Shown here: piece by piece, positions 9,797-13,277 of the stretch
Layout: the number at the start of each line of letters is the position of its first letter
Numbering within the stretch: the stretch's first letter is position 1
Virus record (IMG/VR): IMGVR_UViG_3300045988_023906
Direction: 5' to 3' (one strand)
DNA from: a virus
Length of the DNA stretch: 64,000 nucleotides
Notes under the pieces: model-generated
What the model was told of the DNA's origin: nothing
Databases searched by the model: none
The model's input: the letters and a program-made list of their open reading frames with translations, nothing else
Program-made: the position numbers and the translations under genes

Positions 9797-9847
9797 TATG
9801 GCAAAGAAGTGTGGTTGCAAAGGAAAAGGTAAGAACAATAGAGGTAA

Positions 9848-10108
9848 ATGATTATGGATGCAAGAATAGTTTCAAATCAAGTTATAAATAGCCTTCAAAT
9901 ATCTGTACTGAAGGAGGTGCCTTCAGGGAACTTCAATCCCGGAGTCAACTTCCTACTGAAGAATATATCTGATAATGATGTGGAGGTTACTATAATTCCA
10001 GCAGGACAAAAGGATAGCATAAAGACTATTCTAGGTGTTGGATGGAATCCAGAGATATGTAAAGGTGTTATAAATGCCCCTTCAGGAGTTCTTCAATATG
10101 GATATTAA
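9848..10108 (+). CDS. hypothetical small protein
   Basis: 86-aa ORF directly upstream of the DGR target fibre. No motif recognised. Confidence 0.4.
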   Translation: MIMDARIVSNQVINSLQISVLKEVPSGNFNPGVNFLLKNISDNDVEVTIIPAGQKDSIKTILGVGWNPEICKGVINAPSGVLQYGY

Positions 10109-10111
10109 GAT

Positions 10112-12208
10112 ATGGCAACAGCAATTATAGGTACATTAAAGCATCTTCCTAAGGCATCAATACTGCCTACTTTACCAGAGACAGGTAGACCTAACAGGAT
10201 ATATTTTATCCCCAATGAAGACCCTACAGAAGATAATAGGTATAATGAATATCTATGGGTAAAGGATGAGACTTATCCTGATGGCCATTGGGAGCTTGTT
10301 GGTCCTGCCACAATAGACCTGACTGATTATGCCACTAAGGAAGAGGTAAGTGATTTGGAAGACTCCATAGGTGAGCAAATAAAGAAGTATTTGCCCTTAT
10401 CAGGAGGTACAATGGATAAGGGCAGCAACATATCCTTCCCATCAGATAGTGGGAGTACTGTGTATAATGGTTCTGGAATATCAGTGGGTGGCAAAGCCAG
10501 TACTGACATCCTACATGCAGCAGGAGGCACTACTAAAATCAAGACCTTGAATGGAGAATCTATGTTAGGAGAAGGTAATATTGTAATAGACCCTTCAAGT
10601 GTTCCAGTATCTTTAAGCTGGTATAATAGGACTAGCAGTCAGCAGGATGCCACAATAAACCTGACAATTGGAGATACCACAGTAAACCTATTCCCTAATA
10701 TATTCAAATTATTTAAGGCTGGTAAAGTTTCCACTTCCGAGTCCCTTAGTATAGAACTTACTGCTAATCCTGGGGTAAGTGGGACACCACAAGTTCCTAC
10801 CTCATTATGCCAGTGGAGCATACCTTTGGCTGACAGTAATACCGCAGGTATTATATCAAGTGAGGATAAGGCTAAGTTAGATAACCTATCTGACCCAAAG
10901 AATTTGCTAGCTTATGGTGTGGAATGGGATTCTACCAACAGTAGCCCTGTACTTACTAGAATAGGTAACATGAGCCTGCATAAGTCTCTCCCAATACAAT
11001 CAGCATTAAGAGGATGTGTATGCCAAGGTAAAAGGATAATGTATTATTTGGACCCAAATGACTGGTCTAAGAAAGCAGATGGTACAGATTCCAGATTGGA
11101 TGGATATGATGGTACTGTACAGGTAGAAGTACCTGAATTTTATTTGTGGTCTGAAACGGAAGGAACCAAATCCAGAGTATATGTGTCTACCCAAAAAGTA
11201 GTTTCTTATGCTATAAGGATTCCTCATATGTTGGTAGATGCTTATAGGAGTACTGTACTTAATGAAGTGCCTGAGGATATGGGCTATTTATCTACACTTC
11301 AAGTAAATAGTGCTATTTCAGTTGTAAATACCTCTTCTTATTGTAGAGGAGGAAATAATAGCTCTAGCAGTGATACCTACTTGGAATCGGATAAATTCAG
11401 GACTAGTTTAGGAAAACCTAGAACAAACACTAGTAGGGCAAACTTCAGAACTTATGCCAAAAATGCTGGCAAGATGTTGCTTACTTATGAGTACTACAAA
11501 TCAATATTCTATTGGTTGTATGTTATAGAATATGCAAACTTCAATAGTCAGGCAAACTATGTTGAAGATTTGACTGAAGATGGATATAGACAGGGAGGGC
11601 TTGGCAATGGAGTTACTACTTGGAGTGATGCTGTTTGGAATACTTATAATGGCAGATGCCCAATAACTCCATGTGGGTATTGTAATGAGTTTGGTAACTT
11701 TACTGGAATTAAGGACTTGGTAATTCCTGCTTCAGATGGTATCAGTACCGTAACTTTCAAAGTACCAAGGTGGAGAGGATTTGATAATGTGTTTGGAGAT
11801 ATTTGGACTAATCTGGATGGTATCCTAATAGATACTTCTGTCAGTGCCAGTAAGTCCACACCAAACTATGTGTATATTATAAATGACCCTGATAAGTTCA
11901 CTGATACTTTGTCAGATGCACCTACCAATGCGGATAGAGTAGTAGTATCAGGACATACAGGAGGGTATATTACAAAGTGGGCATTAGGGGAGTATGCAGA
12001 TATAATACCTGTTAGTGTTGGTGGTTCTGCAACTACTTATATGTGTGACTGTTACTGGGTAGATTCTGATAATACTCAGAATACACTACTGGTTGGTGGC
12101 CGGGCTCATTATGGTTCTAATGCTGGCTTGGCTTACTTCTTTTCTGCTCATGGTTCGGGTTATGTTTCTGCCCATGTCGGCTTTAGGTGCTTAACACTGA
12201 TAAGCTGA
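10112..12208 (+). CDS. receptor-binding tail fibre; DGR target protein with C-terminal variable region
   Basis: 698 aa. It has fibre-type motifs (NTAGIISSEDKAKLDNL). The last 36 codons form the VR of a VR/TR pair. The C-terminus ...YWVDSDNTQNTLLVGGRAHYGSNAGLAYFFSAHGSGYVSAHVGFRCL is compatible with a C-type-lectin/FGE-like DGR scaffold. Confidence 0.8.
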   Translation: MATAIIGTLKHLPKASILPTLPETGRPNRIYFIPNEDPTEDNRYNEYLWVKDETYPDGHWELVGPATIDLTDYATKEEVSDLEDSIGEQIKKYLPLSGGTMDKGSNISFPSDSGSTVYNGSGISVGGKASTDILHAAGGTTKIKTLNGESMLGEGNIVIDPSSVPVSLSWYNRTSSQQDATINLTIGDTTVNLFPNIFKLFKAGKVSTSESLSIELTANPGVSGTPQVPTSLCQWSIPLADSNTAGIISSEDKAKLDNLSDPKNLLAYGVEWDSTNSSPVLTRIGNMSLHKSLPIQSALRGCVCQGKRIMYYLDPNDWSKKADGTDSRLDGYDGTVQVEVPEFYLWSETEGTKSRVYVSTQKVVSYAIRIPHMLVDAYRSTVLNEVPEDMGYLSTLQVNSAISVVNTSSYCRGGNNSSSSDTYLESDKFRTSLGKPRTNTSRANFRTYAKNAGKMLLTYEYYKSIFYWLYVIEYANFNSQANYVEDLTEDGYRQGGLGNGVTTWSDAVWNTYNGRCPITPCGYCNEFGNFTGIKDLVIPASDGISTVTFKVPRWRGFDNVFGDIWTNLDGILIDTSVSASKSTPNYVYIINDPDKFTDTLSDAPTNADRVVVSGHTGGYITKWALGEYADIIPVSVGGSATTYMCDCYWVDSDNTQNTLLVGGRAHYGSNAGLAYFFSAHGSGYVSAHVGFRCLTLIS
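12084..12189 (+). other. DGR variable region (VR)
   Basis: 106-nt ungapped match to 12282-12387. All 26 mismatches fall at adenines of the downstream copy. Confidence 0.85.
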
Positions 12209-12281
12209 TTTGATAAAGAAAAGAAAATCATAGTTTTACTATGTAGGACATATATTATACGACTTGGTTAGTTCTAATTGT

Positions 12282-12387
12282 AAAAACTAGTTAGTAGCAA
12301 GGCTAATAATGGTTCTAATGCTAGCTTGGCTAACTTCAATTCTACTAATAGTTCAGGTAATGTTAATGCCAATATCAGCTTAAGGTA
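12282..12387 (+). other. DGR template region (TR)
   Basis: Non-coding copy of the VR located 198 nt downstream. It is A-rich (37 A in 106 nt). Read in the VR frame it has nine AAY codons and begins with a stop, so it is not a coding duplicate. Confidence 0.85.
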
Positions 12388-12513
12388 TTTTTTTTTTGTT
12401 TTCTCTTTAAATTTTATATGTGATATATGTTCCTTGCCTCTAGGCAAAAGATAAATAGTTTAAAAAGTACTAGTAAGAGTTGCTGAAAGTGCTTAATATG
12501 AAACACCTAAATT

Positions 12514-12930
12514 ATGGTTAAAAGAAAAGGAAATTTGATTTTATCCCTATGCAGGATGGATAATATTCTCTTGGCAGATACAAATGCTAGGAAAGCTAAA
12601 AGGAGGAGTAGAAGATTTATAGAAAAACATGATAAGAATATTATAGAAGAGGATAGAAACTACCCTAGAAGGCATGAAGATGATGGTTTCATGGATGTGT
12701 TTGATTCTAGAAGCAATAGGTTTGGTGACAGGTTCAGAGACTCTGGCATGAGAGGAAATGACATGGACAGAATAATAAAGTACATGAGACATTCCATGAA
12801 TGATGGAGAACACTTTACTGAATCTGAAGCTATGGATTTGGTATCTAATATGAGGGTGGCAGAAAGTATAGTGGAGAAAAGTTTGATATACATAAGGCAA
12901 AGGAAATTTGTGAAAGGTATAGAGGAGTGA
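12514..12930 (+). CDS. 138-aa ORF; first ~45 aa resemble the N-terminus of DGR-type reverse transcriptases (probable RT remnant)
   Basis: VKRKGNLILSLCRMDNILLADTNARKAKRRSRRFIEKHDKNIIEE fits the KR..NL...I...NLL.A...ARKGKR pattern of DGR RT N-termini, recalled from memory. The remaining ~90 aa show no RT motifs. An antisense ORF (12547..12945) is equally open. Confidence 0.4.
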   Translation: MVKRKGNLILSLCRMDNILLADTNARKAKRRSRRFIEKHDKNIIEEDRNYPRRHEDDGFMDVFDSRSNRFGDRFRDSGMRGNDMDRIIKYMRHSMNDGEHFTESEAMDLVSNMRVAESIVEKSLIYIRQRKFVKGIEE

Positions 12931-13124
12931 TTCCTGTGTCTGCAACTCCTACTGATGTGTATGTGGCAATCAACTCACAGTATCATGATTATGTTGAGCT
13001 GTTTAAGAGTTGGTTTGGTGATAATGTAGACCAAAAGATAATAGAATCTGCTATTATATTCTGGTTCAAAGATGTGGATTGCAAAGCCGAAAACAAGGTA
13101 GTAGAATATCTTGGAGAATACTAA
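12927..13124 (+). CDS. hypothetical small protein
   Basis: 65-aa ORF overlapping the previous stop and followed by a strong terminator. Confidence 0.35.
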   Translation: MIPVSATPTDVYVAINSQYHDYVELFKSWFGDNVDQKIIESAIIFWFKDVDCKAENKVVEYLGEY

Positions 13125-13130
13125 TAAGAT

Positions 13131-13163
13131 AAGGGTAAGAGGTAATCTTACCCTTTCTTTTTG
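13131..13163 (+). terminator. intrinsic terminator
   Basis: aagggtaaga-ggtaa-tcttaccctt gives a 10-bp perfect stem, followed by tctttttg. Confidence 0.75.
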
Positions 13164-13215
13164 TCCATATTGCAAGTATTTTTATATGCTACTAATAAGT
13201 GTTTTATTTACTATC

Positions 13216-13248
13216 TTGCAGATATGCAAAACTTTACTTACCTTTGCA
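13216..13248 (+). promoter_or_regulatory. Bacteroidota-type promoter (CTTG-N20-TACCTTTGCA)
   Basis: TTG at 13216-18 and TACCTTTG at 13239-46. The 18-nt block ACTTTACTTACCTTTGCA is nearly identical to 27285-27302. It lies 32 nt upstream of ATG 13278. Confidence 0.65.
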
Positions 13249-13277
13249 CTGTTTTAAGAACAAAAAGGTAGAAGAGT

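Follow-up and report, generated by a model that had tools for sequence, protein, structure and literature searches.

The tail-protein gene, its variable region and the template

The DNA analysed here (the window) is a 64,000-nt stretch of the IMG/VR virus record IMGVR_UViG_3300045988_023906. The locus of interest consists of a tail-protein (fibre) gene with a variable region (VR) at its 3′ end, a template region (TR) downstream, and the truncated start of a reverse transcriptase (RT) gene (Table 1), an arrangement resembling that of a diversity-generating retroelement (DGR). An earlier note on this window had proposed a DGR acting on the fibre C terminus. The window belongs to a crAss-like gut phage: the open reading frame (ORF) at 14529-16046 matches the Crassvirus major capsid family (Crass_capsid in Pfam, E = 5e-228), and the phage is ~98% identical to Kahnovirus oralis cr85_1 (NC_055883), with 98.4% identity over window positions 9800-12240. 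The fibre gene product shares 98.4% identity with the cr85_1 "tail protein" YP_010111621 and matches the PHROG family phrog_5302 "tail protein" (E = 7.8e-85), which bears out the identity that the note had given to the target.

Table 1. Features of the locus, in window coordinates
Feature	Coordinates	Strand	Basis
Target gene, 698-aa tail protein/fibre; conserved C-terminal part ~253-698 ending in a predicted C-type lectin (CLec)/formylglycine-generating enzyme (FGE)-like domain	10112..12208	+	ORF, phrog_5302, cr85_1 homologue
VR, fibre residues 658-693	12084..12189	+	26/26 mismatches at TR adenines
Spacer 1, VR to TR; includes the 3′ end of the fibre gene (6 codons and the stop)	12190..12281	+	ORF map
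TR, 37 adenines, nine AAY codons in the VR frame	12282..12387	+	Alignment to VR
Spacer 2, between TR and RT, 126 nt; putative RT-17-like structured RNA at 12430-12506	12388..12513	+	Rfam match
RT remnant, opening 48 codons only (MVKRKGNLILSLCRMDNILLADTNARKAKRRSRRFIEKHDKNIIEEDR)	12514..12657	+	Identity to the L015 RT 5′ end, tblastn
Deletion junction, 10-nt microhomology AGAGGATAGA	12648..12657	+	Three-way comparison of window, L015 and cr85_1
DUF7841 remnant (cr85_1 gp071 homologue), lacking the first 140 nt, frameshifted	12658..13124	+	Pfam PF25223, cr85_1 alignment

When the alignment of VR and TR was recomputed, the two segments matched without gaps over 106 positions with 26 mismatches, all of which lie at adenines of the TR (A>G 11, A>T 8, A>C 7). 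By template base, 26 of the 37 adenine positions differ and none of the 69 others (P = 2.2e-16 for all 26 mismatches landing on the 37 A positions, hypergeometric). Non-adenine mismatches border the homology on both sides (12083/12281 and 12190/12388), and the 5′ boundary is uncertain by ~5 nt because the TR opens with five adenines; a separate repeat search of the window recovered the pair as 12088-12188 and 12286-12386. Read in the VR frame, the TR is *KLVSSKANNGSNASLANFNSTNSSGNVNANISLRY, with nine Asn (AAY) codons. The adenine-only pair, its abrupt ends and the count of AAY codons thus came out as the earlier note had described them, and mismatches at non-adenine template positions, which it had named as the pattern contrary to its reading, are absent from all 69 such positions.

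Two of the template nucleotides are peculiar to the window. The TR departs from the consensus of its relatives at 12328 (G instead of A) and 12374 (A instead of G), since all 13 other complete TR copies among close relatives have A and G, respectively, at these positions; the two-site difference is measured against the TR common to eight of nine RT-intact relatives, L066 being the ninth (loci in related genomes are designated by L and a number). The G in the other complete TR copies makes it more likely that the mismatch 12374(A)/12176(G) arose by a private G>A point change in the window TR than by A>G mutagenesis, whereas the ancestral TR carried one extra A (12328), facing a G in the VR. These private changes alter neither the mismatch totals nor the overall conclusion.

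The fibre protein has no match in Pfam or NCBIfam, and a profile search of PDB sequences was also without match, so that structure comparison was the sole informative test of its fold. An AlphaFold2 model of residues 253-698, built from an alignment of 30 homologues, reached a mean predicted local distance difference test (pLDDT) score of 73.8 and a predicted template-modelling (TM) score of 0.82, with pLDDT of 58-75 over the VR. Its best Foldseek match in the PDB is the DGR variable protein TaqVP of Thermus aquaticus (5vf4; E = 3.2e-4, probability 0.99), and further top matches include several FGEs (e.g., 6xtp) and Mtd of Bordetella phage (1yu2). The global TM-scores are low (0.33-0.38); the set of matches is nevertheless specific. 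With moderate confidence, given these TM-scores and the pLDDT over the VR, the fibre C terminus is predicted to adopt the CLec/FGE fold found in DGR variable proteins, as the earlier note, which also suggested a structure prediction, had supposed. TaqVP resembles the fibre in its CLec/FGE-type fold and in having variable residues at the C terminus; it differs in being a bacterial rather than a phage fibre protein, in sequence (11-12% identity), and in overall superposition, the TM-scores being low because the phage protein has extra domains.

Neither the window nor the intact relatives have an ORF between VR and RT that could code for an accessory protein of the Avd or HRDC type. Such a protein is not required, because DGRs with lineage-3 RTs have been reported to lack avd (PMC7290462). 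Spacer 1 is 97-99% conserved among the relatives that retain it. The VR/TR homology ends in ...GGCTTTAGGTG and ...AGCTTAAGGTA, which differ at A sites only; no GC-rich initiation of mutagenic homing (IMH) block or IMH/IMH* pair was found at the 3′ ends of VR and TR in the window, and a weak hairpin across the VR end folds no better than shuffled sequence (z = −1.36). The earlier note was right that neither a GC-rich IMH nor a hairpin follows the VR, and less so in calling this atypical: the RT-intact relatives likewise lack a GC-rich IMH, and its absence is a trait of the whole phage family, neither an anomaly nor a sign of decay. Among 16 more distant relatives, the VR/TR homology stops at the same conserved G-TT(T/A) motif, which is GGCTT in most.

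Spacer 2 matches the Rfam family RT-17 (RF03020) with 37.5 bits (E = 1e-5), just below the gathering score of 40.4, and the same score is obtained for L014, in which the RT is intact, and L015, in which it is frameshifted; across the window region and 10 relatives, every Rfam match stayed short of the gathering score of its family. The RT motifs of Rfam are defined by adjacency to RT genes, and one of them, RT-10, lies between TR and RT of Bordetella phage BPP-1 (PMC5737381). The putative RT-17-like RNA occupies the place of the priming "Sp" RNA in the Bordetella phage DGR. The T-run directly after the TR (12388-12397) differs in length among relatives, in which the distance from TR to RT is 125-127 nt.

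The reverse transcriptase stub and the 4,724-bp deletion

The ORF at 12514-12930 is chimeric. It begins with 48 residues (MVKRKGNLILSLC...IIEEDR) that are the N terminus of the DGR RT of the relatives: the stub shares 99.3% identity with the 5′ end of the L015 RT over 144 nt and 79% with the intact L014 RT over residues 1-47 (tblastn). It has no Pfam domain and lies wholly upstream of RVT_1, which spans residues 75-258 in the intact L014 RT. Past codon 48 the ORF runs on in the middle of the DUF7841 gene, the homologue of cr85_1 gp071, and intact relatives carry the 10-nt junction sequence in the RT gene as well as in that for DUF7841. Compared with the intact locus L073, the window has suffered a single deletion of 4,724 bp that joins RT nt 144 to DUF7841 nt 141; compared with the intact L068, it is identical at 463 of 468 positions from the end of the VR to RT nt 144 and then makes the same jump. 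The deletion took RT codons 49-338, nine genes, and the 5′ end of a tenth (DUF7841). Among the lost genes are two small ORFs, genes for a helix-turn-helix (HTH) protein, a GIY-YIG nuclease, VOG3488 and a 259-aa "putative tail protein," together with two others.

An independent lesion is present in the same genome. A 10-nt deletion between 12850 and 12851 (TGTATCACAC in relatives) shifts the frame of the DUF7841 remnant, which therefore consists of the tail of the chimeric ORF and a 65-aa ORF at 12927-13124 (PF25223, E = 2.4e-19).

The search for another RT covered the window and ~10 kb on either side, i.e., all but ~15.8 kb of the 98.4-kb source genome. Within this range tblastn with the intact RT returned nothing beyond residues 1-47; no YxDD or GxxxSQ RT motif was found in any frame of the window, and no RVT Pfam domain among the genes of the two flanks. 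In a scan against NCBIfam, which holds no DGR-RT model, every RT match fell far below the cut-off. The complete 98-kb cr85_1 genome has one RT-like place only, and this is a fragment. Beside the TR of the window, in the place of a DGR-clade RT, there are 48 codons without RVT_1. The window DGR is thus not functional on its own, having target, VR, TR and spacer RNA and no enzyme, and the part of the earlier note that had the element acting on the fibre is not supported.

The deletion is a real, transmitted genotype. At least 10 contigs, from MEGAHIT-style ENA, JGI and Logan assemblies, encode the exact chimeric protein of 138 aa; three of these contigs are ~98.4 kb long, and the junction together with an identical VR is found in assemblies from at least five runs. 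The carrier contigs examined are 99.94-100% identical to the window and have the same VR, and also the same TR wherever the locus reaches the TR and the comparison is in register. Exact searches for the junction in metagenome and viral contig collections returned nothing, and therefore no more-diverged carriers, and, when the chimeric ORF served as a protein query, full-length matches were confined to its own near-identical clone. An exact search of IMG/VR for the 35-nt TR core was also empty, because the window TR has a private substitution.

Cassettes in related genomes

Scanning IMG/VR with the fibre yielded 54 related loci. An RT-based protein search gave P0153, a 338-aa RT that is 99% identical to the reconstructed RT of the window species and belongs to a cluster of 201 sequences; its contigs hold the full cassette of fibre with VR, 92 nt, TR, 125-127 nt, and RT. 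The intact RT has the motifs IGNYLSQ and YADD and directly follows the TR. Among nine RT-intact genomes, the TR is identical in eight (L066 differs at two further positions) and the VRs are all different, with 8-19 differences at A sites and 0-3 elsewhere, while the flanks are >98% identical. Pairwise comparison of the VRs of 23 close relatives gave a median of 14 differences at TR-adenine sites and 0-6 at other sites. The VR variation of the relatives is thus confined almost entirely to TR-adenine sites, and the adenine-only rule also holds in 16 more distant fibre relatives (43-76% identity), 11 of which have an intact RT. Because the mismatches are restricted to adenines, the relatives vary at the same kind of site, and the predicted domain has the CLec/FGE fold, the VR/TR pair is the mark of a DGR, and mutagenesis of the DGR type has shaped the window VR.

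In the same lineage, decayed cassettes predominate. Seventeen IMG/VR relatives with at least 95% fibre identity were chosen without regard to the RT, and none of the 15 that could be read across the cassette has a working one; their lesions are not that of the window and are mostly different. The deletions begin in spacer 1, TR, spacer 2 or RT, and their other ends lie within the RT or as distant as DUF7841. Approximately 35 mostly different deletions were counted in 24 near-identical genomes, with microhomologies mostly of 0-16 nt. They fall in a 5.8-kb block between the fibre gene and gp070, the gene upstream of the capsid gene (window 12190-13277 against L073:7677-13496), which is dispensable and riddled with deletions and contains the DGR and genes for the HTH protein, the GIY-YIG nuclease, VOG3488, the 259-aa "putative tail protein" and DUF7841. 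The end-points gather at both edges of this block, from the fibre stop to gp070, as is expected from successive neutral deletions bounded by essential genes. Breakage driven by the RT was considered as a cause of the clustering near the TR and rejected, since the right-hand end-points cluster equally at the DUF7841/gp070 edge. Long contigs may under-represent intact cassettes, because an active DGR makes the VR polymorphic and this may break assemblies there; the L017 contig ends in or near the VR, and those of L014 and L015 end just past the RT.

One clade (L001, L003, L011, L016) shares a common deletion that removed the TR, and its members later gained different further deletions; their VRs are 1-4 A-site differences apart. 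This "frozen" VR was considered as proof of inactivity, an argument weakened by the near-identical VR of the RT-intact L074.

Several genomes illustrate other forms of damage. In L015:8171-8269 (IMGVR_UViG_3300029780_000039), the TR is normal for its first 35 nt, after which every adenine is replaced up to the 3′ end; this 3′ two-thirds also has three non-A changes and a 7-nt deletion, and the TR-type downstream flank is kept. The mutated tract is not a copy of the VR of L015, and the L015 RT is frameshifted near codon 110. From its sequence, it looks as if mutagenized cDNA had homed into the template itself. In L013:7766-7876 (IMGVR_UViG_3300045988_011001), the 198 nt from VR to TR have been lost by recombination across ~73 nt of VR/TR homology, so that the 3′ end of the fibre gene now stems from the TR and continues into an RT fragment. 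The cr85_1 genome, the RefSeq reference of Kahnovirus oralis, lacks the TR as well as the 5′ and 3′ ends of the RT, owing to deletion; right after its tail-protein gene it retains an unannotated RT fragment of 127 codons with IGNYLSQ and YADD (L001:10442-10825; NC_055883 22163-22546). In L018:4175-5802 (IMGVR_UViG_3300029410_000037), the fibre match ends at residue 455 and the post-RT region comes next, which suggests a genome that lacks VR, TR, RT and the entire CLec domain, unless the contig is mis-assembled or comes from a defective genome.

Interpretation and comparison with known systems

The window element is very probably the decayed remnant of a DGR of the "target-VR-TR-RT" type without avd that is known from crAss-like phages. 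The ancestor would have transcribed the TR together with the spacer downstream, and the adjacent 338-aa RT would have copied the TR RNA to cDNA while misincorporating opposite adenines. This cDNA would then have taken the place of the VR in the last codons of the fibre gene, so that about 20 positions on the ligand-binding face of the C-type-lectin-fold domain would have been re-randomized. For this mechanism the Bordetella phage paradigm serves as the model. One deletion between two 10-nt direct repeats later removed all but 48 codons of the RT, leaving the VR, TR and spacer RNA behind. Nothing in the examined sequence can copy these, and the fibre tip would be fixed in its last state unless a co-infecting relative supplies an RT. 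We infer the present inactivity of the element mainly from the missing enzyme.

Several observations weigh against this reading or limit it. The junction carriers are near-clonal genome-wide (0-7 differences in 13-20 kb), and some of their run accessions look like a single study, two run numbers being close together; the sameness of the VR among them is for these reasons no more than moderate evidence that the element is inactive. The near-sameness of the VR in the RT-intact L074 and the TR-less clade means that a stable consensus VR is no proof of a dead element. Furthermore, a second RT could strictly speaking lie in the unread ~15.8 kb of the 98.4-kb genome, though cr85_1 has none.

The best surviving alternative, which we consider unlikely, is that the element is still used, with the RT of a co-infecting RT-intact Kahnovirus acting in trans on the VR, and perhaps on the TR and spacer RNA as well, and the fibre diversifying now and then. 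All parts needed in cis are intact (VR, TR with 37 adenines, spacer with the putative RT-17-like RNA), RT-intact relatives occur in human guts, and their TR differs from that of the window at 2 of 106 positions, with an essentially identical spacer. Trans supply of TR and RT reportedly works for Bordetella phage BPP-1. However, the same VR is seen in every assembly with this junction, sister genomes are cut into the spacer or TR at many points, which gives no sign of selection on the cis parts, and the two private substitutions in the window TR are consistent with drift. Much less probable is a complete DGR whose RT lies outside the window in the part of the genome that was not read. Intact relatives all have the RT immediately after the TR, and here that very gene is visibly truncated; moreover, one ~10-kb flank holds replication and nucleotide-metabolism genes (toprim primase, uracil-DNA glycosylase, ThiF) and the other small ORFs that lack annotation, along with nucleases of the HNH, GIY-YIG and endonuclease VII types (no RT in either flank), and the complete cr85_1 genome has no second RT. 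An ordinary diverged duplication (0/69 non-A against 26/37 A positions differ) or an RT deletion that is an assembly artefact (the junction has a clean 10-nt microhomology and was assembled independently in ENA, JGI and Logan assemblies, on 98.4-kb contigs) can practically be dismissed.

Apart from decay by deletion, it is conceivable, if doubtful, that the avd-less DGR of the crAss type is intrinsically self-destructive for want of an IMH/IMH* distinction, and that RT-less genomes are "parked" receptor-binding variants that co-infecting RT-intact relatives could re-diversify in trans. The idea of self-destruction fits the adenine-mutated TR of L015 and the loss of 198 nt between VR and TR in L013. 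If both parts held, the DGR would have its function at the level of the population rather than of the genome.

The reading of the window as a decayed remnant agrees with what is known from other crAss-like phages. The first crAss-like DGR was described in crAssphage LMMB of genus I, with the order target-VR-TR-RT, no avd and a lineage-3 RT; complete cassettes were present in 15 of 91 genomes and incomplete ones in 66 of 91, and the region was suggested to be unstable (Morozova et al. 2020, Viruses 12:573, PMC7290462). The window locus shares with the genus I cassettes this gene order without avd, a tail fibre as target, an atypical IMH and a VR of ~35 codons at the extreme C terminus. Truncated cassettes prevail in both groups (66/91 in genus I; 15/15 among the readable fibre-selected relatives here), in a region variable by deletion, and the LMMB RT is 57.5% identical to that of L014. 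The differences are that the window phage belongs to Kahnovirus oralis of the Steigviridae, unlike the p-crAssphage of genus I, that its target has 698 aa instead of 486 aa, and that its deletion is not one of those in the LMMB group and is defined here to the exact junction and microhomology. With VR and TR in place, the RT truncated, and the locus syntenic with the RT-intact L068 and L073, the window presents the features of a decayed crAss-like cassette. This form of decay has been known from crAss-like phages since 2020, and the window extends it to another family and a different target; a literature search for a DGR in Kahnovirus returned no paper.

The DGR of BPP-1 (Mtd/TR/Avd/Brt) offers a likeness in the adenine-specific transfer from TR to VR, into a C-terminal CLec-fold domain of a receptor-binding fibre, and possibly in a structured RNA between TR and RT (RT-10 in BPP-1, a putative RT-17-like one here). 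Unlike BPP-1, the window has no avd, no GC-rich IMH/IMH* pair, no significant hairpin after the VR, and no RT.

These results add a second crAss-like family (Steigviridae, Kahnovirus oralis) with a DGR aimed at a tail fibre and provide base-resolution examples of how a cassette dies, by microhomology deletion, by VR-TR recombination and, apparently, by self-mutagenesis of the TR. DGR finders that begin from the RT will miss VR/TR fossils of this kind, and a hypervariable fibre tip in an RT-less genome should not be taken as ongoing diversification. The general understanding of DGRs is unchanged by the window case.

A further observation concerns the capsid region. In L004 (12055-12892), and also in L006, L007 and L009, the major capsid gene is broken at nt 1366 by an insert of ~840 nt that codes for a 195-aa HNH-type endonuclease. 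No Rfam intron family matched at threshold in L004; the insert looks like an intron or homing element, and the capsid gene of the window is uninterrupted.

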